Shown here: positions 520-12,563 of the stretch, piece by piece | Layout: the number at the start of each line of letters is the position of its first letter | Position numbering within the stretch: the stretch's first letter is position 1 | Assembly: GCA_963845565.1 (NCBI GenBank) | Contig: CAWJSJ010000005.1 | Span: 416,001 to 480,000 of the forward strand | Length of the DNA: 64,000 nucleotides | Reading direction: 5' to 3' | From: an uncultured Methylomirabilota bacterium | GTDB lineage: Bacteria; Methylomirabilota; Methylomirabilia; Methylomirabilales; 2-02-FULL-66-22 | Notes under the pieces: model-generated | The model's database searches: none | What the model saw: only the letters and a program-made list of their open reading frames with translations | What the model was told of the DNA's origin: nothing | Made by a program: the position numbers and the translations under genes

Positions 520-1356
520 CTAAGGCGTCAAGGCGGCCCACGCGCCGAAGGCCACCTCGAACCCCTGCCAGAGGTTGCGGCCGGCAAGGCGACTCGCCCG
601 TCCCAATTGCAGCAGCGGCTGCCAGAATCGGCGTCCCTCCCGGACTCCGGCCAGCAGGCCGCGCCAGCGCAGGTCGCCTCCCGGGCTGGTGCAGCGGGCC
701 AGCGATGCGGGGAGCGGGTCACCGGCGGCATCCACGACCACTTTGAGTGCGGCCCAGGGAATCCCCAACGCCTGCGCGGCCCGCGCGACCCCCGCGGCTT
801 CCATCTCCACGGCGACGGCGCCGCTCCGCCGGTGGGCCGCGCGCTTCGCGTCCGGTGTCCGGAGGGGCGCCTCGACCGTGATCAGCGCGCCGGAGTCGAC
901 CGGCAGTCGCGCGCGACGCAGAGCGGCACACACGGCGGCATGGGAGGCGTCGAACGCCATGGGGGCGCTCGTGGGCTCTCCATCGTCCAGGACGACGCTG
1001 GGACAGACCAGATCCCCCGGCCGGAGGGTATCGACCAGGCCGCCGGCAAACCCCAGGGACCAGACGGCATGCGCGCCGAATGTACCGGCGGCGGCGATCA
1101 CCGCCTGGCGGGCGCGTTCACGACCGATACCGGCCTGCACGAGCAGGACGTCCCGGCCGGCCAGAGTCCCGCGCACGGTCGCCCGGTTGCCGAGCGTCCC
1201 GTGTTGGGCGGATTGCAGCGACCCGCGGAGGGCGTGGCGCTCGGCCGCCAATGCGACCACTAGGATGACGGGTGAAGCCGCAGTTCCTATACCGGTACCG
1301 CCCGCCGTGGCCGCGCCGTCGCCGTCCGGTTGTCTGGCGCCAAGGGAGGTGCCCAC
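520..1356 (-). CDS. hpnG: Hopanoid-associated nucleosidase/phosphorylase (MTA/SAH nucleosidase fold)
   Basis: Motifs GIG, GFAGGL..LRPGDLV, VEMEAAGVA and KVVVD; directly downstream of shc. Confidence 0.8.
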   Translation of the reverse strand: MGTSLGARQPDGDGAATAGGTGIGTAASPVILVVALAAERHALRGSLQSAQHGTLGNRATVRGTLAGRDVLLVQAGIGRERARQAVIAAAGTFGAHAVWSLGFAGGLVDTLRPGDLVCPSVVLDDGEPTSAPMAFDASHAAVCAALRRARLPVDSGALITVEAPLRTPDAKRAAHRRSGAVAVEMEAAGVARAAQALGIPWAALKVVVDAAGDPLPASLARCTSPGGDLRWRGLLAGVREGRRFWQPLLQLGRASRLAGRNLWQGFEVAFGAWAALTP

Positions 1357-1361
1357 CGCGA

Positions 1362-3344
1362 CTACCGGGGCAGACCCAACGGGATCACGGGCGATCGCGC
1401 ACCGGCATCCTGCTGTGTGCGGAGTCGGCGATAGAGCGCGAGTGCCCAGATGGGGAAATACGCCCGATAGCCGTGATAGCGGAGATAGAAAATGCGTGGG
1501 AACCCTGTTCCGGTAAATTCCGCCTCGTTCCAGAAGCCGTCCGGCCGCTGAGTCGAGAGTAAGAACCGGACCCCGGTCGCGATAGCGGGATCCCGCACCT
1601 CGCCGGCGAAGAGCAGCCCGAGAAGCGCCCAGGCCGTCTGCGAGGCCGTGGATTTCCCCATCCCCCCGGTGCGCGGGTCGTCATACGTATAACAGGACTC
1701 CCCCCAGCCCCCGTCCGGATTCTGCCGGCTGAGGAGCCAGGCGACCGCCTTCCGCACGCAGGACTGACCCATGTCTGCGCCGATGGAATGGAGGCCGGCC
1801 AAGACGGACCACGTGCCGTAGAGGTAATTCACGCCCCAGCGCCCGTACCAGGAGCCGTCGGCGCACTGCCGGGCTTGCGTGAAGGCGATGGCCCGCGCGG
1901 CGGCGGGCTCCTCCGGCCGGAACCCCAAATACCCCAATGCCTCCAGAACGCGCCCGGCCAGATCCTCGGTGCTGGGGTCCATCAGGGCGCCGTGGTCGGC
2001 GAAGGGGATCTTATTGAAGATCAGGCGGTTGTTGTCCTTGTCGTACGCACCCCAGCCGCCGTCGCTTCCCTGCAGGGCGAGGATCCAGTTCAAGCCGCGG
2101 GCGATGGAGCGGGTTTTGGCCTCTTCGTCCGGGAGGCGGATCTTGCGAAGCGACATCAAAACGGCTGCCGTGTCGTCCACGTCGGGATAATAGTCGTTCT
2201 CGAACTGGAACGGCCAGCCGCCCGGCTGGACGCCGGGTGCCTTCAGTCGCCAATCCCCCGGGCAACGGGTCTGCCGGTCGAGGAGCCACAGACCAGCCCG
2301 GACGAGCGCGGGGTCATCCGGGGGGAGGCCCGCCTCGACCAGGGTGCTGATGGTGAGGGCGGTGTCCCAGACCGGCGAGAGACAGGGCTGGACGCGGAAG
2401 GTGTCGGGGGTGTCGAGGCAGAGATCTTCGATCGCGGCCAGGCCGCGAACGACCTCCGGGCTGTCCAAGGGGTAGCCGAGACAGGTGAGCGCGATCACCG
2501 CGTTGGCCATGGCCGGGAAGATGCCGCCCAAACCGCCGTTGCCCTGCATCCGTTCCAGCATCCAGCGCTCGGCCATGCGGATGGCCCGCTGCCGGAACGG
2601 CTGTCGGACCAGGCGGTCATGGAGGCGCAGGCAGCGATCCACGAAGAGGAAGAAGTTCCGCCAGGTGAACGTCTCGGCATCGCGGGGGAGCGACAGGTCC
2701 GCCTCGTCTCGCGGGACGAGGTAGAGTTCGTCCAGGTGCGCATGAGCGGGGCCCGGCCGGACAGGCCGGTGCGCGAAGATGATGAGGAGCGGGATCAACA
2801 CGGTCCGGGACCAGTAGGAGATCTCGTAGAGATTGAAGTAAAACCAGCGGGGCAGGAGCATGATCTCCACGGGCATGCAAGGAACGCCCTTCCAGTCCAG
2901 CTCGCCGAAGAGGGCGAGAAGGATCCGCGTGAAGATATTGACCTCGGTGATCCCTCCCAGGTCGCGCACGCAGCGGCACGCCCGGACGAGGGCGGGGTGC
3001 GTGGGGGAATACCCGGCCATCTTCAAGGCGAAGTAGGCCTTGACCGTGGCACTGATGTTGACCGGCCCGTTCGCGTAGATGGGCCAGCCGCCGTCGGGGA
3101 GCTGCAGGGACAGCAGGTGACGGGCCGCCTTGGCCTCCCGGGCGGTGTCGGCGTTCCCCATCCAGCGGCGCAGCAGGAGGTATTCGGATGTGATGGTGGC
3201 GTCCGCCTCCAGTTCGTGCACCCAGAATCCTTTCGGATCCTGTTGGGCGAGCAACGCCTCGATGCCGCGCTGGAGCGCGGCATCGAGCACGGTCGTCTGC
3301 GGAACGTCATGGGCGCGCGAGGCGCGCAGCGGACGTGGATTCAT
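1362..3344 (-). CDS. shc: Squalene-hopene cyclase
   Basis: DVDDTA catalytic motif, QW repeats (QLPDGGW, QGSDGGW, QNPDGGW), RWGVNY, GTGFP. Confidence 0.97.
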   Translation of the reverse strand: MNPRPLRASRAHDVPQTTVLDAALQRGIEALLAQQDPKGFWVHELEADATITSEYLLLRRWMGNADTAREAKAARHLLSLQLPDGGWPIYANGPVNISATVKAYFALKMAGYSPTHPALVRACRCVRDLGGITEVNIFTRILLALFGELDWKGVPCMPVEIMLLPRWFYFNLYEISYWSRTVLIPLLIIFAHRPVRPGPAHAHLDELYLVPRDEADLSLPRDAETFTWRNFFLFVDRCLRLHDRLVRQPFRQRAIRMAERWMLERMQGNGGLGGIFPAMANAVIALTCLGYPLDSPEVVRGLAAIEDLCLDTPDTFRVQPCLSPVWDTALTISTLVEAGLPPDDPALVRAGLWLLDRQTRCPGDWRLKAPGVQPGGWPFQFENDYYPDVDDTAAVLMSLRKIRLPDEEAKTRSIARGLNWILALQGSDGGWGAYDKDNNRLIFNKIPFADHGALMDPSTEDLAGRVLEALGYLGFRPEEPAAARAIAFTQARQCADGSWYGRWGVNYLYGTWSVLAGLHSIGADMGQSCVRKAVAWLLSRQNPDGGWGESCYTYDDPRTGGMGKSTASQTAWALLGLLFAGEVRDPAIATGVRFLLSTQRPDGFWNEAEFTGTGFPRIFYLRYHGYRAYFPIWALALYRRLRTQQDAGARSPVIPLGLPR

Positions 3345-3357
3345 GCCGGCTCCCTGG

Positions 3358-4359
3358 TCAGGCGAGGTTCCAGCGCAGCATCTCCCAGAGGTCCTTCCAG
3401 CTCTTTCCGACCTCGCGAACCACCGTGTGCTCGAAGCCGCTGTGCATCATGCAGTTGGTGCAGCGCGGGTCGCGCTTGTTCTCGTACTTCTCCCAGTCGG
3501 TCTGGGTCATGAGCTCGTCGAAGGTCCGGTAGTGGCCGTCGGTGATCAGGTAGCACGGCCCTTTCCAGCCTTGCGGATTGTAGTTCGGTCCGCCCCAGGG
3601 GGAGCACTTGAGGTCCCGTTCGCCCTTCAGGAAGCGAAGGTACATGGGCGTGCTGAGGATGCGGTATTGCTTGGACAGCTCCCAGATCTTCTGGAACTTC
3701 TCATGTGTCTGCTGCTTTTCCAAAAAGATGTCGCGCCCCTTCAGGATGGTGTACTCGTACCCGGGCGTCACCAGGAAGCCGTCCACGCCGATCCCGGCCA
3801 GCTCGGAGAAAAGCTGGGTGATCTCGTCGACCTTGGTCTCCTTGTAGACGGTGGTATTGGTGACCACTCGGAAGCCCAGCGACTTGGCCAGCTTGATCAT
3901 GCGGATGTCGATCTGATAGAGCCCCTTCCGCGACCGCACCAGATCATGCGTCGGTTCCAGCCCGTCCATGGAGACGTTGATCGTGAGGTAGGGGCTGGGC
4001 GTCCATTTGCGAAGGAATTTCTCCAGCTTGATGGCATTGGTGCACAGGTAAATGAACTTCTTACGGCGGAGCAGCTCCGACACGAGCTCGTCCAGATGGG
4101 GATAAATAGTCGGCTCCCCTCCGCAGATCGACACGATCGGGGCCCCGCATTCCTCGACGGCCTGCAGGCAGGTGGCGACGGGGAGCATGTCCCGGATGGT
4201 GCTCTCGAACTCCCGGATCTTGCCGCACCCCTCGCAGGCGAGATTGCACAGATGGGTCGGCTCCAGCATCAGGACGAACGGATATCGCTTCTTGCCGCGC
4301 ACGGCATTCGCGACGATATACTTCGTCAGCGTCCACTGCAATTGCCAGGGAAACCTCAT
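3358..4359 (-). CDS. hpnH: Adenosyl-hopene transferase, radical SAM
   Basis: MLEPTHLCNLACEGC (CxxxCxxC), GGEP and C-terminal RCTNCMMHSGFE. The ATG at 4359 overlaps the upstream stop (ATGA). Confidence 0.92.
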   Translation of the reverse strand: MRFPWQLQWTLTKYIVANAVRGKKRYPFVLMLEPTHLCNLACEGCGKIREFESTIRDMLPVATCLQAVEECGAPIVSICGGEPTIYPHLDELVSELLRRKKFIYLCTNAIKLEKFLRKWTPSPYLTINVSMDGLEPTHDLVRSRKGLYQIDIRMIKLAKSLGFRVVTNTTVYKETKVDEITQLFSELAGIGVDGFLVTPGYEYTILKGRDIFLEKQQTHEKFQKIWELSKQYRILSTPMYLRFLKGERDLKCSPWGGPNYNPQGWKGPCYLITDGHYRTFDELMTQTDWEKYENKRDPRCTNCMMHSGFEHTVVREVGKSWKDLWEMLRWNLA

Positions 4360-5168
4360 GACGCAGCCCCTTCCCGCCGCGGCGTCGCCCAGACCGCCCG
4401 CGAAAACGTACACGCCCGAAGGGTGGCGATCGTCACCGGCAGCGCGAGAAGAACGCCGCAGAGGCCGAGCCACCACTCCTTCAGGGCAAAAGTGATCGAC
4501 AGGTTGAACACCAGCACGACGAAGTACAGGCCGGGGCACAGCCCGGCCCGCCCCCGGAACAGGACCTCCGTGACGGGGGGCAGCCGACGCTCCCAGATGT
4601 GATACAGGGCTATCGCAACGGCGCCGACCACCGCCCACCCCAGGAAGTTGGCCAGCGGTATCCCGAAGTAGAGACCTGGGTCTGGGTAGCCGTAGATCTG
4701 GCCCAGGAACCATCGGTCGCCCCGCAGGGCCACCGGATCGATGATGACATCCGCCAGCACGAACAGGCCTGTCGCCAGGGCAAGGTGGGGAAGCCGACGC
4801 GGCCGCGGCCACCGACCGCTTTCCCGCCGAGAGCCGCGGTTCTGTCGTCCCGCCAGGAGCAGCCACGCCACCCCGTAACTGGCGACCAGCAGGAACGGAA
4901 ACGAGATCGAGTCGAAAAACGGCACCCCGGCGATCCAGAGTTCCCGGTCGCTGGTCGTAGGAAGGTAATAGTACCACCCGAAGGGGATGCCTGTCCTGAT
5001 CGAACTCGCCTCGGCGACAAACGCCACCAGCCAGGTGAAGCCGGTGAACGCCACGGTGCGCCGCCAGCCCAGCAGGGCGCTGGCCCCCGCGAGGTGCAGG
5101 CCGAGGAGCGCGAAGACGTATGGCCGGAGAAGCAGGCTTCCCAGCAATAACCGCGGTACGTCGCTCAT
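4356..5168 (-). CDS. CruF/DUF422-family membrane protein (carotenoid 1,2-hydratase-like)
   Basis: Motifs AE..SI.TGIPFG.Y.Y, GVP, D.IIDP and GIPLANFLGW; multiple TM helices; SD AAAGGA before the ATG at 5168. Confidence 0.8.
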   Translation of the reverse strand: MSDVPRLLLGSLLLRPYVFALLGLHLAGASALLGWRRTVAFTGFTWLVAFVAEASSIRTGIPFGWYYYLPTTSDRELWIAGVPFFDSISFPFLLVASYGVAWLLLAGRQNRGSRRESGRWPRPRRLPHLALATGLFVLADVIIDPVALRGDRWFLGQIYGYPDPGLYFGIPLANFLGWAVVGAVAIALYHIWERRLPPVTEVLFRGRAGLCPGLYFVVLVFNLSITFALKEWWLGLCGVLLALPVTIATLRACTFSRAVWATPRREGAAS

Positions 5169-7912: not shown

Positions 7913-8527
7913 CTACTTGCCCTGGATCGTAAAGTGCCCTCGCCGATTCCACTTCCAGGCGCTCTCGTCGTGACCGAGGACGAAGGGGCGCTCCTTGCCA
8001 TAGGAGATCGTGGACACCCGATCGGCGGCGATGCCGGCGGCGATGAGGTAATCCTTCACCGACTTGGCGCGGCGCTCGCCCAGGCCGAGGTTGTACTCGG
8101 CGGTGCCGCGTTCGTCGGTATGGCCCTCGATGAGGAGCTTGGCGCCCGCATTGCCCTTCAGCCAGCCCACGTTGTCGTTGAGGGCGGCCTTCTGGTCGTC
8201 GCGGATGTTGGACTTGTCGAAGTCAAAGAAGACGTCCTTGAGGGGGGACGGACCAGGCACGGCCGCTGCCGCCGCCGGGGCTGCCGCCGCCGGGGCCGGT
8301 TGAACCGGCGTTTCCGCCGGGGCGGGGGTCCGGGTCACCGGCGTCTCCGCGGTCCGCGGGGCTGGCTGGGCTGGCGCCGCCGGGGCGGGGGATGTGGCGG
8401 CTTGCGGGCCGACCGCGGCCGGGCCAGCCTGCAGCACCTCGGGCCGCTTGGGGCAGCCGTAGAGCGCAAGGGACCCGATCAGGACCACCGCCGCGAAGAG
8501 CACCTGCACGTTCGACCGAAATCGCAT
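7913..8527 (-). CDS. pal: Peptidoglycan-associated lipoprotein
   Basis: LYGC lipobox, Pro/Ala linker, VFFDFDKS, IEGHTDERGTAEYNLGLGERRA, SYGKERP, NRR; SD AGGAGG. Confidence 0.93.
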   Translation of the reverse strand: MRFRSNVQVLFAAVVLIGSLALYGCPKRPEVLQAGPAAVGPQAATSPAPAAPAQPAPRTAETPVTRTPAPAETPVQPAPAAAAPAAAAAVPGPSPLKDVFFDFDKSNIRDDQKAALNDNVGWLKGNAGAKLLIEGHTDERGTAEYNLGLGERRAKSVKDYLIAAGIAADRVSTISYGKERPFVLGHDESAWKWNRRGHFTIQGK

Positions 8528-8864
8528 CAGACTCCTCCTTTCCCAATCGTCAGTGATGTTGAATCTTGGATGGGCGAACTTCGCCAAGTATAACCGAACC
8601 AGCAAAACCGCTCGCAAGGATATGGGCAATCGCCTTTTTATTCAAGAGAAAACGTACAACGGCCCGTTCGGCGAGCACGGACCTGATAAACCGGCCTCCC
8701 GGCTCCATCCTGCGGACCGTGACGGTGGGGACTTTACGCCTCGCGCGACCCCGGAAGATTTCGCTGGCGAGAACGCGCCGGGATGATGGTATCATCCCGA
8801 ACCAGGCAGGTCGTGGCCCCCGAGCGGGGGGATGGGGAGCCTTGCGGACGTGGCGGATACCAAG

Positions 8865-8896
8865 GGAACCCTGGACGGCGCCGACGGTCTTACCCT
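8865..8896 (+). promoter_or_regulatory. ECF-type promoter, probably autoregulatory
   Basis: GGAAC-N17-GTCTTACCCT, with the same spacing and -10 region as the copy at 10809. Confidence 0.75.
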
Positions 8897-8918
8897 AGAG
8901 AAGACGGAAGGCGACACC

Positions 8919-9533
8919 GTGGCGGCGGCCACGGTGGACGAGGATCGTCGGCTGGTGGATCGGGCGCGAGCGGGCGACGTCCAGGCCTTCGAGGCGCTGG
9001 TCCGCCGGTACGAACGGTGGGTGTTCACGTTGGCGGTTCGCATGGTGGGGGACCGCGCCCAGGCCGAGGACCTGGCCCAGGAGGTGTTCCTCAAGGCGTA
9101 TCGCGGGCTGCGGGGTTTCCGCGGGGGTGCCCGCTTCTCCACCTGGCTCTACGCCATCGCCAGCCACCACTGCCTGAATTATCTGACCGGGCGGGAGTCC
9201 CGGATGCGACGGGCGGAGCGGACCGACGGCCCGACGGACGGCCGCGGGGGCAGCCCGTCGTCGGTATGGGACCGTGTGGCGGACGAGGCGCCGGGACCGG
9301 ATGCCGTGCTGGAGCGGCGAGACCTGCGACGGCTGATCCAGGATGAACTGCTGCGCCTCTCGGAGGATCACCGGATGGCGGTCGTCTTGCGGGACATCCA
9401 GGGGATGTCCTACGAGGAGATGGCGGAAACGCTGGGGGTCGAGCTGGGGACGGTCCGCTCGCGGCTGCACCGCGCGCGCATGGAACTCAAGGCGCGACTG
9501 GGGCCGTCTCTGGGCGACAGGAGCCGGACATGA
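8919..9533 (+). CDS. ECF RNA polymerase sigma factor
   Basis: AEDLAQEVFLKAY, FSTWLYAIA and SYEEMAETLGVELGTVRSRLHRAR. Start moved from 8832 to GTG 8919 (SD GGAAGG) because the ECF promoter lies inside the longer ORF. Confidence 0.93.
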   Translation: MAAATVDEDRRLVDRARAGDVQAFEALVRRYERWVFTLAVRMVGDRAQAEDLAQEVFLKAYRGLRGFRGGARFSTWLYAIASHHCLNYLTGRESRMRRAERTDGPTDGRGGSPSSVWDRVADEAPGPDAVLERRDLRRLIQDELLRLSEDHRMAVVLRDIQGMSYEEMAETLGVELGTVRSRLHRARMELKARLGPSLGDRSRT

Positions 9534-10669
9534 CGTGCGAGGAGGCGCGCGAGGCCTTCACGGATCTGTACGACGGCACGCTCTCGGGCCCGCCCTTGGT
9601 GGCCCTCAGCCGGCACCTGGACGGGTGCCCGACCTGTCGCCGGGAGTGGGTGGCGTTTCGCCTGACCGCCGGCGCGCTGGGGGAGTTACGGGACGAGGAG
9701 CCGTCGCCGGGCTTCGCGGCGCGGGTCGCCGAGCGGATCGAGGCACCCCGCGGGTGGCGCCGGCTCGCGTCGTCTCTGGTGTTTCCGCTGCGACTGAAGC
9801 TGCCGATTCACGCCGCGGCCCTCGTGATGCTTGGCGTGGCGGGACTGTGGGTGTCCCAGCGGTCTCCCGAGATCCAGCGGGCCGCCAACCCGGGCGCACC
9901 GGTGGTGGAACGCCCCGCGACGGTAGCGCCGCCCGCGACGGTCCCGGACGTCCCGACACCCGAGGCGAGGCTCGCGACGCAGAAACCGCCCGCGCCGGTC
10001 GCTCCTCGCTCAGCCCCGCCGGCTCCGGCGCCGCCTGCGGCCGCCAAGATCGAGGCGCCCGCGATCGTCCGGGAAGAGCAGGCCGCTCCGCCGCCACCGC
10101 CGGGCGGGGTGTCTCAGCCTGCGGCCGAGGCGCCGACCCCGTCGCTGGCGAAGAGATCGGACTCCGAGGCTTCGGCGCCACGACTCTCGCGGTCCGCACC
10201 CGCTCCATCCGACGTGCGCGATCGATCGCAGGCGGAAGGTCTGACCGCCGCCGCCCCGGCCGCGAAGGAGGCGAGGGCCGCCGCGCCCGGCCGCCGGACG
10301 GCTGACGAGCTCTTCTCCGCCGCGGCCACGGAGTTCGCCGCCCAAAGTTATGCGCAGGCCGTTCCGCATCTGCAGGCGTTCCTGGCGCAGTACCCGTCCG
10401 ATGGCCGTGCGCCGGACGCCCTGTTCCTGCTCGCCGAGGCGCACCGCGCGCAGCAGCAGTACGCCCAGGCGGGCGCGGCGTTCGCGGCGTTCGTCACTCG
10501 GTATCCCGCACATCGGCGAGCCGCGACGGCTCTCTATCGGCAGGGGGAAGTCGCGCTGGCGGCGGGTGACTCCTCCGGATGCGCCATCCTGCGCGAGGCG
10601 TTGGGCCGATACCCCGAGGCCCGCGAGGCCGCCCCTGCCCGGGAGAGCCTCTCCGGGCACTGCCCGTGA
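9530..10669 (+). CDS. Zinc-finger anti-sigma factor with a TM helix, Pro-rich linker and C-terminal CpoB(YbgF)-like TPR domain
   Basis: N-terminal C...HLDGCPTC (ZAS), TM AAALVMLGVAGLWV, and C-terminal FLAQYP...A.DALFLLAE...FVTRYP...ALYRQG...GC..L...YP...C. ATGA-coupled to the sigma gene. Confidence 0.85.
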   Translation: MTCEEAREAFTDLYDGTLSGPPLVALSRHLDGCPTCRREWVAFRLTAGALGELRDEEPSPGFAARVAERIEAPRGWRRLASSLVFPLRLKLPIHAAALVMLGVAGLWVSQRSPEIQRAANPGAPVVERPATVAPPATVPDVPTPEARLATQKPPAPVAPRSAPPAPAPPAAAKIEAPAIVREEQAAPPPPPGGVSQPAAEAPTPSLAKRSDSEASAPRLSRSAPAPSDVRDRSQAEGLTAAAPAAKEARAAAPGRRTADELFSAAATEFAAQSYAQAVPHLQAFLAQYPSDGRAPDALFLLAEAHRAQQQYAQAGAAFAAFVTRYPAHRRAATALYRQGEVALAAGDSSGCAILREALGRYPEAREAAPARESLSGHCP

Positions 10670-10808
10670 TTCCGTGAGAGACGGGCAGCGATCGGGACGG
10701 CGACGACAGGAGAGCTGAACCATTCCGGCCGCCGTGACGACGGACGATCCCTCGCGGTCCCCATCCTCCCCCCCAACCCCTGATCCCGAGATTCCCGTTC
10801 CCTTTCGC

Positions 10809-10840
10809 GGAACTTTTTCCGTCGGCGCCGGTCTTACCCT
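10809..10840 (+). promoter_or_regulatory. ECF-type promoter of the DUF4139 gene
   Basis: GGAACTT...GTCTTACCCT, matching the sigmaE/AlgU-like GAACTT-N16-TCTNA. Confidence 0.75.
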
Positions 10841-10886
10841 GCAGAGCGGTTGTCAGGCGAATCATTGAGCGACAGGAGGAGAAGCG

Positions 10887-12308
10887 ATGCGTGCGTCATG
10901 GTGGATGTTTGTCGGGGTCCTGGTATCGCTGTCCGGAGGCGTCACGGACGCGGTGGTGGCCGCGCCCGGTCGCAGTGCGGTCACGCGCGAGCAGCAGAAG
11001 GAGATGTCCGTCACGATCTACAACGGGAATCTGGGTCTCGTGAAGGACGTCCGGGAACTCCAGCTTCCGGCCGGAACCCATGAGGTGCAGTTCGCCGATG
11101 TGGCCTCCCAGATCGATCCCACCACGGTGCACCTGAAATCGCTCGCAGATCCCACCGGCGTGCGCATCCTGGAGCAGAATTACGAGTACGACCTGCTGAG
11201 TCCGCAGAAGCTCCTGGACAAGTACGTGGGGAAGAGCGTGAAACTGATGACGGGAGACGGCGCGCTGATCGACGCCGTCCTGCTGGCAAACAACAACGGC
11301 CCGATCTACCAGATCAATGGCCAGATCCACCTGGGGCATCCCGGCCGGGTGATCCTTCCCGAACTGCCCGAGAACCTGATCGCCAGGCCGACCCTGGTGT
11401 GGCGCCTGCAGAGCGGCCTGGCGCGCCCCCAGCGGGTGGAAGCATCGTATCTGACCTCTGGGATCACCTGGAAGGCCGATTACGTGGTGGTACTGAACGC
11501 CAAGGATACCGGCGGCGACCTGTCGGGGTGGGTGACGATCGACAACAAGAGCGGGGCCAGCTACCCCGATGCGGCGCTCAAGCTGGTCGCGGGGGACGTT
11601 CATCGGGCCCCCGCGAAGCAGGAACTGCGGGCGGTGATGGAATCTGCCGCGAAGGTGGCCGCGGCGCCCCGGCCGCAGTTCCAGGAGGAGTCGTTCTTCG
11701 AGTATCACCTGTACTCCCTGCAGGGGCGAACCACCATCAAGCAGAACCAGACCAAACAGATCAGCCTGCTGGATGCGCCGGATATCGCCATCAAGAAGGA
11801 GTTGCGGTTCTCCGGGGCCAGCCAGTACTACCGCGGCCAGCTCGGCACGCCGATCTCGAATCAGAAGGTCGGCGTGTTTCTGGAAATCGCCAACACGGAG
11901 CAGCACCGACTCGGCATCCCGCTCCCCAAGGGGACCGTGCGGGTGTACAAGGCCGCAGCCGACCAGAGCCTGCAATTCATCGGGGAAGACGTCATCGATC
12001 ACACGCCAAAGGACGAGAAGGTCACGATCAAGATGGGGGAAGCCTTCGACGTGGTGGGGGAACGCACGCAGCGGGACTGGAAGAAGATCGCCTGGAACCT
12101 GTACGAGACCGAGTGGGACGTCGAGCTCCGGAACCACAAAAAGGAGGACGTCGAGGTCGCCATCATCGAGCCGGTTCCGGGCGACTGGGAGGTCGTGAAG
12201 AGCAGCCACCCCTACACCAAGGTCGAGGCCCATACCCTCAAGTACCTGGTGAAGGTCCCGAAGGACGGAAAGGTGACGGTGACCTATCGCGTGCGAATGC
12301 GCTGGTAG
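10887..12308 (+). CDS. Secreted DUF4139 domain protein
   Basis: Signal peptide, VTIYN.NLGLVKD.R, EQNYEYDL, SYLT.GITWKADY, EYHLY, PLPKG.VRVY, IDHTP; SD AGGAGG. Confidence 0.88.
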   Translation: MRASWWMFVGVLVSLSGGVTDAVVAAPGRSAVTREQQKEMSVTIYNGNLGLVKDVRELQLPAGTHEVQFADVASQIDPTTVHLKSLADPTGVRILEQNYEYDLLSPQKLLDKYVGKSVKLMTGDGALIDAVLLANNNGPIYQINGQIHLGHPGRVILPELPENLIARPTLVWRLQSGLARPQRVEASYLTSGITWKADYVVVLNAKDTGGDLSGWVTIDNKSGASYPDAALKLVAGDVHRAPAKQELRAVMESAAKVAAAPRPQFQEESFFEYHLYSLQGRTTIKQNQTKQISLLDAPDIAIKKELRFSGASQYYRGQLGTPISNQKVGVFLEIANTEQHRLGIPLPKGTVRVYKAAADQSLQFIGEDVIDHTPKDEKVTIKMGEAFDVVGERTQRDWKKIAWNLYETEWDVELRNHKKEDVEVAIIEPVPGDWEVVKSSHPYTKVEAHTLKYLVKVPKDGKVTVTYRVRMRW

Positions 12309-12314
12309 GCCTTT

Positions 12315-12482
12315 CAGGCTGCTGACAACGGCCCATCTGGGGGACAGCCTGCGGCGGGACCCGCTGTTCGGGCGCTCGTTGCGGCGTACCTGAAGTACGC
12401 CTCACTCGGCCCATCACTTGCCGCCTTGCGTCTGGTCCTTTTTGAGCAGCCTGAGCGAGAAATGGTTTTTCCGTAGCCTGCT
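12315..12482. repeat. Palindromic MITE/REP-like element, family A, copy 1
   Basis: CAGGCTGCTGAC...GGCGTACctgaaGTACGCC...CCTTTTTGAGCAGCCTG; similar to copies at 27443, 30755 and 61064. Confidence 0.85.
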
Positions 12483-12563
12483 GAGGCGCGGCGGAGGCGG
12501 TCCGGCCAAACGGTGGGAGCCCGCGTCCGCCGTGTTGTGGCGGGATGTCAGGCAAAGAATATC

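Follow-up and report, generated by a model that had tools for sequence, protein, structure and literature searches.

What is a copy of a Tol-Pal accessory domain doing at the end of an anti-sigma factor, and what does the sigma factor beneath it control? The question is raised by positions 7913 to 12308 of a stretch of 64,000 nucleotides (hereafter the window) from an uncultured Methylomirabilota bacterium whose genome is 98.7% complete, where genes for a sigma factor of the extracytoplasmic function (ECF) type, a zinc-binding anti-sigma (ZAS) factor and a secreted DUF4139 protein lie divergently from pal, and where the anti-sigma factor ends in three tetratricopeptide repeats (TPRs). What is new here, as predicted by comparing this locus with its relatives, is an ECF281-like envelope regulator with a sensor domain derived from CpoB. 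Judging by its promoter motif, the sigma factor appears to activate the DUF4139 gene and, in many of the relatives, those of the Tol system, while pal is probably a genus-specific neighbour outside the conserved module. Families and genera of the phylum are coded below (f1, f3 and so on), f1 being the family and genus of the source genome. The features of the locus, in window coordinates, are as follows.

7913..8527, minus strand: pal, peptidoglycan-associated lipoprotein (TIGR02802, 131.8 bits, cut-off 125.35)
8865..8892, plus strand: predicted autoregulatory ECF promoter, GGAACC-N16-GTCTTA, score 14.4
8919..9533, plus strand: ECF sigma factor, ECF281-like, 204 amino acids, inferred GTG start, with Sigma70_r2 and r4_2 matches
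9530..10669, plus strand: anti-sigma factor, 379 amino acids, with zinc finger, membrane helix, Pro/Ala linker and CpoB-derived TPR domain
9536..9640, plus strand: ZAS domain, C3...H30xxxC34xxC37, residues 3-37 (zf-HC2, 33.4 bits, cut-off 22.2)
9800..9856, plus strand: single predicted membrane helix, residues ~91-109, top hydropathy window, mean 1.79
9863..10294, plus strand: low-complexity periplasmic linker, 144 amino acids, 22% Pro and 26% Ala
10295..10666, plus strand: three-TPR domain, CpoB-derived, with invariant Cys351 and Cys378
10809..10836, plus strand: predicted ECF promoter for DUF4139, GGAACTT-N15-GTCTTA, score 27.8, the genome's top site
10887..12308, plus strand: secreted DUF4140/DUF4139 protein, 473 amino acids, with DUF4139 over and DUF4140 under its cut-off

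The open frame of the sigma gene opens at ATG 8832, but because a promoter is predicted at 8865-8892 the start is most likely GTG 8919, a placement for which orthologues were also compared. Against the NCBIfam sigma models only general ones exceeded their cut-offs, RpoE being among the best yet under its own. The sigma and anti-sigma genes overlap, stop on start, at 9530-9533. The anti-sigma factor has the two hallmarks of a ZAS protein, an N-terminal zinc motif (found in 72 of 73 orthologues) and a gene coupled to that of an ECF sigma factor, and its N-terminus consists of the ZAS domain and the membrane helix, without the signal peptide or the trimerising coiled coil of CpoB. The length of the linker varies among orthologues, whose full proteins range from 278 to 447 amino acids. 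Modelling of the TPR domain gave seven helices arranged as three TPRs (pLDDT 97.2). With the zf-HC2 match, the linker of 144 residues and this model, the architecture read in the first-pass annotation (ZAS domain, one helix, Pro/Ala linker, three TPRs) was borne out.

That annotation had also called the TPR unit CpoB-like, and a hidden Markov model comparison was made to place it. The top family was tol_pal_ybgF (TIGR02795), at 78.5 bits, above BamD (OM_YfiO), at 48.6 bits against a cut-off of 81.4; the domain nevertheless missed the tol_pal_ybgF cut-off of 90.1, which was exceeded by five of the 21 orthologous anti-sigma TPR domains. The closest solved structures by sequence were YbgF 2xev and CpoB 6g5s, and in a fold search YbgF and BamD tied (template modelling (TM) scores 0.88-0.90; 2xev 0.88), so that fold alone cannot separate them. 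The trees were more decisive. In a tree of 82 rows the 21 anti-sigma TPRs (99/95) joined two TPRs of f3 (100/98) inside the CpoBs of the order. The two f3 sequences are the f3 cpoB product and a full lipoprotein CpoB paralogue (cpoB2), encoded as tandem duplicates in the order tolA-tolB-pal-cpoB2-cpoB1 (L338:1978-4747). When 33 near-duplicate or long rows were dropped and five cpoB2 proteins added, the resulting tree of 54 rows placed the anti-sigma TPRs, cpoB2 and f3 cpoB1 in one clade (100/99), with a weak internal order (89/18), and constraining the anti-sigma rows to group with outside CpoBs and BamD was rejected (approximately unbiased test, p 0.028). A one-residue deletion and a GC...C cysteine pair are common to the members of this clade. 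Since the trees nest the anti-sigma TPRs within the CpoBs of the lineage, a derivation from CpoB, with a donor-like duplicate still visible in a tol-pal operon, is supported by sequence, as first proposed, and an origin from a generic TPR or from BamD was rejected on the family scores together with the trees.

The cysteine pair itself had been taken as characteristic of CpoB in general, and this did not hold. The pair is present in 21 of 21 anti-sigma TPRs, in the two f3 CpoB paralogues and in a Sinorhizobium YbgF, and is missing at that position from the two solved CpoB domains, from three of four outside CpoBs and from all 36 operon-type CpoBs of the lineage; in the source genome, the operon CpoB starts like a lipoprotein and carries another Cys pair at its C-terminus (LCEL...RCR). 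On this distribution the pair is a mark of the clade of anti-sigma TPRs and f3 CpoBs, not of CpoB at large. The idea that the pair points to an alphaproteobacterial source was rejected, the Sinorhizobium row falling outside the lineage clade in the trees. Cys351 and Cys378, both invariant, probably form a disulfide.

Elsewhere in the order, DUF3568 lipoproteins are fused to a CpoB-like TPR in f4 and f6 (L103, L105-L108, L120), and f8 has tandem pal-cpoB duplications (L230, L231), including a CpoB-like protein of 947 amino acids, from which the CpoB-like TPR can be regarded as mobile in the order. Searching a TPR profile against 50% representatives returned only long repeat proteins among the best 150 matches, and a plasmid search with the TPR gave no matches.

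The domain sits in a more widely conserved module. Among the best 80 of 247 relatives of the DUF4139 gene, a sigma gene and a zinc-finger anti-sigma gene lie directly upstream in 54 loci; 16 loci were too short, and the ten without the pair are all titled Binatia, Geobacter or Nitrospirae. By this synteny the conserved unit is sigma factor, anti-sigma factor and DUF4139 protein, and it is phylum-wide. Only eight of the 54 anti-sigma factors end in the TPR, and the rest, bar three that are frameshifted, end in an unrelated domain of ~85 residues, which gave a weak DUF4349 match (E 0.1 or better) in 19 of 31 aligned members, the best at 1.7e-5; the first member of this non-TPR set scored 22 bits, under the cut-off of 27.7. 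Anti-sigma-type TPRs were found in 16 of 21 f1, one of one f3 and four of six f5 genomes and in no others among 251 genomes of the phylum, with scores that are partly circular because the profile was built from the same sequences. In a tree of the sigma factor and the anti-sigma N-terminus from 53 chosen rows, the 16 TPR-type rows formed one clade (100/98), sister to DUF4349-like rows of f7 (99/94), with one change of C-terminal state. Because the TPR-type clade nests among DUF4349-like rows and the state changes once, the DUF4349-like form is, as judged from this tree, ancestral, and was replaced once by the TPR in the ancestor of f1, f3 and f5.

The sigma factor's probable targets were sought through its promoter motif. 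Once eight duplicates and seven loci with frameshifts or gaps had been set aside, GGAACTT-N15-GTCTAA was found between the anti-sigma and DUF4139 genes in 62 of 67 loci, compared with 20 of 13,200 shuffles; the five misses comprise one locus without sequence, two without a DUF4139 gene there, one with an insertion and one whose site falls past the 420 bases scanned. Of 71 loci, 66 have a looser pattern upstream of the sigma gene and none has it on the opposite strand, the site of the source genome being the weaker GGAACCC variant, and the other six ECF genes of that genome scored 3.2 or less. Counted genome-wide, a loose pattern did not rise above its reversed control, and therefore only positional conservation was used. 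The proposal that the DUF4139 gene is an output of the ECF sigma factor is thus supported, as a prediction, by a conserved promoter. Public RNA runs gave only small divergent contig fragments and were uninformative on expression.

The signal peptide of the DUF4139 protein was read by eye from the sequence, and its model is all-beta (pLDDT 76.9). A whole-chain fold search with this model gave no convincing match, with beta-sandwich matches reaching Z 9.2. Within window positions 10962-12305, residues 78-137 of the model form an insert that resembles Sm/Hfq (best Z 7.0) and is flanked by beta-sandwich domains, which could hint, weakly, at ring formation. A possible link of DUF4139 to the Pseudomonas aeruginosa protein MuiA was left aside.

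The three highest-scoring sites of the genome lie upstream of the DUF4139 gene (27.8), a gene whose secreted product belongs to no known family (25.3) and tolQ (20.4). The second of these proteins has ~253 amino acids (C2:201814-202641) and no Pfam match; its signal peptide and body are in different frames in this assembly, and three orthologues are whole. An orthologue carries an ECF site in three more genomes. Among 20 further high-scoring sites chosen by eye, three precede genes for VIT-vWA proteins, another is found before a second DUF4139-type gene in f4, and many of the remainder look like chance. In genome G002 (L391:572-4758) a distant ECF sigma factor and zinc-finger anti-sigma factor are followed by a VIT-like protein with the same promoter type.

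The site upstream of tolQ, 208 bases from the gene in the source genome, is a predicted link to Tol that the first-pass annotation did not contain. We surveyed relatives for sites that score at least 14 and lie no more than 700 bases upstream of tolQ; 11 of 4,650 shuffles reached this level, and the kin in the sample are not independent. Such a site was found in 11 of 20 f1, one of one f3, six of 15 f4 and seven of 18 f7 genomes (two f7 loci being too short), and in none of six f5 genomes, none of three from f2, f6 and f8 and none of 30 loci on the Rokubacteria side, these last being 30 of 40 tolQ-like matches taken as hits and not as confirmed operons. The predicted control of Tol is thus not coupled to the TPR, the site occurring in f4 where there is no TPR and the TPR in f5 where there is no site.

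Whether the transplanted TPR has kept the specificity of CpoB can be asked of its surface. In Enterobacter numbering, N179, Y182, W183, Y189 and K220 are retained by 33-36 of the lineage's 36 operon-type CpoBs and, for the most part, by the four CpoBs from outside it. In the 21 anti-sigma TPRs, however, N179 is kept in none, Y182 in one, W183 in one, Y189 in none and K220 in two, so that the N-A-x-Y-W-L-G surface motif of CpoB is not retained, and the change of W183 (to R or L) is non-conservative. The anti-sigma TPRs have invariants of their own instead, D291, R293, G346-D347, C351 and C378. Because the CpoB-invariant residues survive in only 0-2 of 21 anti-sigma TPRs, it is most likely that the specificity of the domain has drifted from that of CpoB.

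In the available parts of the E. coli work, the CpoB TPR binds TolA domain II and PBP1B (PMC7391070, PMC4458516, PMC6220978), and the PBP1B system is described as needing LpoB and the UB2H domain and as confined to enterobacteria and Vibrionaceae. A search of the genome for LpoB gave no match, and one for a PBP1B-type UB2H domain gave Mfd as the sole UB2H-like match. Sensing of PBP1B-LpoB, put forward at first as the peptidoglycan-synthase status that the domain might report, was accordingly rejected, both partners not having been found in this genome. Five genes with transglycosylase domains are present, and given these another synthase partner for the TPR is possible.

The reading we prefer is that of an ECF281-like envelope-stress switch in which the TPR serves as a general sensor of envelope-protein status, its specificity having drifted from that of CpoB, and we give it an even chance of being right. 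By analogy with ZAS systems described elsewhere, the zinc finger in the cytoplasm would hold the sigma factor at the membrane, and the TPR, on its long flexible tether and probably locked by a disulfide, would form a peptide-binding cap. The state of this cap would decide whether the anti-sigma factor is cut by periplasmic and then by intramembrane proteases, and the genome does encode an M50 intramembrane protease; sequestration and proteolytic release are inferred from ZAS systems and from the presence of this enzyme. The freed sigma factor would then transcribe its own operon, the DUF4139 gene and that of another secreted protein and, in the source genome and about half of its genus, tolQRAB-cpoB.

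Several observations weigh against this reading. The assignment to ECF281 follows a text description and not the ECF group models. The lone tolQ site, at 20.4, is at chance level in a single genome, where three real sites score at least 19 compared with 2.0 in shuffles, and the f7 tolQ sites, a CGAAC variant, occur in seven genomes in which this sigma factor was not found, and therefore another ECF sigma factor may read such sites. Lastly, several if not most of the substitutions on the TPR surface, such as N to D, Y to F or K to R, are conservative, some also occur in the f3 CpoBs, and therefore binding of TolA may persist.

If it did persist, the system could be a feedback sensor of Tol, in which the TPR binds TolA, perhaps at a short EELTLPGR stretch, free TolA protects the anti-sigma factor, and a shortage or engagement of TolA frees the sigma factor to make more TolQRAB and CpoB. 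We regard this as plausible, though clearly less likely than not, given that the TPR stems from the cpoB of a tol-pal operon, that the CpoB TPR of E. coli binds TolA domain II (PMC7391070, as far as that source was available) and that the tolQ promoter recurs in f1 and f3 at the counts given above. The TolA linker also offers a possible ligand, EELTLPGR being conserved in an otherwise variable linker in 26 of 26 TolA rows across the order (L061:5874-5900 in the source genome), with a pattern written after the alignment had been viewed; it is a candidate epitope for CpoB or another Tol partner. In contrast, the surface residues invariant in CpoB, the tryptophan included, have been lost, the site and the TPR do not travel together in f4 and f5, and the tolQ site is lacking in seven of 16 sigma-bearing f1 genomes. 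Moreover, the TolA linker of this organism is Pro-rich and TonB-like, unlike the TolA segment of E. coli, which is helical. That a sigma factor transcribing tolQRAB-cpoB acquired, as the sensor of its anti-sigma factor, a TPR from the very CpoB whose gene it controls, so that the anti-sigma factor counts free TolA directly in a homeostatic Tol loop, is likewise a tentative idea to which we give clearly less than an even chance.

The TPR could also be a passive folded cap, for which any small periplasmic domain would serve, the signal being read at the linker or the helix. Two unrelated folds do occupy the same position in the anti-sigma factor, the CpoB-like TPR is mobile, as its DUF3568 fusions suggest, and zinc-finger proteins with TPRs recur in three other phyla (Myxococcota, Acidobacteriota and Bacteroidota). 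The anti-sigma TPRs, however, keep their own surface residues D291, R293 and G346-D347 invariant, which is more than a cap seems to need, and we consider this account improbable. About as improbable, finally, is that the TPR binds the co-encoded DUF4139 protein as an RseB-like co-repressor, closing a negative feedback through the sigma promoter of the latter. In favour of this, the DUF4139 gene, with its own promoter, is a constant neighbour, present at 16 of the 18 TPR-type loci whose sequence was long enough. Against it, the protein held 62-67% identity across the swap from the DUF4349-like domain to the TPR, which a specific contact would hardly survive; DUF4139 occurs without the sigma pair in the ten loci from other phyla and the pair occurs without DUF4139; and the motif also precedes a second DUF4139-type gene and one for a VIT-vWA protein in other places, as would be expected of outputs.

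The pal gene, which first suggested a Tol-Pal connection, does lie divergently from the sigma gene with no tolQRAB or cpoB adjoining it, as had been noted. It is, however, one of three pal genes in the genome that pass the cut-off. The tolQ-tolR-tolA-tolB-cpoB operon, which lacks pal, lies on another contig (C1:397157-401945) and ends in a true cpoB (121.1 bits); the last place in the tol operon is thus filled by this separate gene and not by the anti-sigma TPR. Within f1, pal and the sigma gene diverge in 14 of 14 relatives with upstream sequence, with a TetR gene between the two, co-oriented with pal, in 11 loci (e.g. L041:8081-8740) and missing in the source genome and three relatives. Outside f1 the adjacency was found in none of four TPR-type loci of f3 and f5, none of seven f4 and f6 loci and none of 39 non-TPR loci with at least 1.5 kb upstream of the sigma gene. 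In f1 pal is outside the tol operon in 13 of 14 judgeable loci, and in other families it precedes cpoB in ten of ten. No ECF promoter was found upstream of the three pal genes of the genome, and at the 14 loci the single pal-facing site scoring at least 14 falls within TetR codons. A Pal tree was poorly resolved and showed only that the pal genes of the genus group together (91/82). Conservation of the pal adjacency, which had been set as a test beforehand, thus holds only within f1 and without a facing promoter; pal was rejected as a part of the sigma system on synteny and on the absence of such a promoter, and its position is best read as a genus-level rearrangement, although there may be a functional reason for its retention beside the sigma gene.

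Two unpublished genomes enter these counts: G028 gives one f5 row (TPR over the cut-off, no pal, no tolQ site) in the alignment and trees, and G050 accounts for one f4 genome lacking the tolQ site and for one row among the TolA sequences. With both removed, four of 20 TPRs exceed the cut-off, pal adjacency outside f1 is none of three, and the tolQ site is found in none of five f5 and six of 14 f4 genomes, with the same conclusions.

Two further observations concern the surroundings of the module. Positions 520-5168 of the window hold a group of genes that we tentatively label as a squalene-hopene cyclase, a radical-SAM gene and other hopanoid-type genes, and this group is kept near the sigma module in many f1 genomes. 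Past the DUF4139 gene, the GC-rich intergenic stretch 12310-12500 contains words resembling a site upstream of the gene at C2:2119082; it also matched RNA contigs and is possibly a small repeated element.

The locus matters, in our view, because the gain of a sensor domain can be traced: genomes still show the domain that was there first, its one-time replacement and a cpoB duplicate resembling the donor. In place of the heavy-metal role that they inherited as a guess, ECF281-like sigma factors gain a predicted envelope regulon (DUF4139, a VIT-vWA protein and tolQRAB), and DUF4139 proteins would be placed in an envelope-stress response. If the idea of a TolA-counting anti-sigma factor is true, it would be, as the first of its kind, a dedicated sensor of Tol status coupled to transcription; if the TPR no longer binds TolA, the case is one of a lineage-limited domain swap in uncultivated bacteria.

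Among known systems, RpoE-RseA-RseB and AlgU-MucA have a similar promoter (GAACTT-N16-TCnnA), autoregulation and envelope outputs, but RseA lacks both a zinc finger and a folded domain of the CpoB kind. Unlike in the RpoE-RseA-RseB system, no RseB gene is present in the locus. The closest description is that of ECF281 (Casas-Pastor et al. 2021, PMC7826278), which, in the parts available, has a GGAACTT / GTCTAA promoter, a one-helix zinc-finger anti-sigma factor at position +1, fused to DUF4349 in two subgroups (s3, s4), and a proposed role in heavy-metal response, with no characterised member named. The present system shares with it the anti-sigma factor at +1 and the promoter motif, and most relatives, though not the source protein, end in a domain with a weak likeness to DUF4349. 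It differs in that the same parts of the description contain no TPR, DUF4139, pal or tol, and list phyla that omit Methylomirabilota; the portion of its supplement searched had no match for DUF4139, DUF4140, YbgF, YfiO or NC10. The module of sigma factor, anti-sigma factor and DUF4139 protein was not described in the literature searched, which excluded subscription journals and preprint supplements. Nor was the architecture, which the first-pass annotation had thought undescribed, wholly without precedent: TPR-bearing anti-sigma factors are known, and the undescribed part is a ZAS protein with a CpoB-derived TPR, of which no case appeared in the portions of these sources consulted. ECF35 and ECF267 have putative +1 anti-sigma factors with periplasmic TPRs (PMC7826278); both are proteobacterial, ECF267 is FecR-like, and neither is described there, in the parts available, as a ZAS with a CpoB-derived TPR or DUF4139. 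DdvA-DdvS of Myxococcus xanthus, as far as the source was available, has a zinc anti-sigma factor with a periplasmic TPR-CHAT domain and controls CRISPR-Cas and a cyclic-oligonucleotide-based anti-phage signalling system (CBASS) (PMC11506125). DdvA thus resembles the present protein in its cytoplasmic zinc domain, membrane helix, periplasmic TPR sensor and proposed release by intramembrane proteolysis, and differs in its large, protease-like TPR-CHAT domain, in contrast to the three-repeat, CpoB-derived TPR found here, with no protease domain and with envelope genes as the predicted targets. With CpoB/YbgF itself the domain shares the three-TPR fold (TM 0.88 to 2xev) and its ancestry, but here it is tethered to the membrane with a ZAS domain, its N-x-x-Y-W motif is changed and a separate, true cpoB has been kept.

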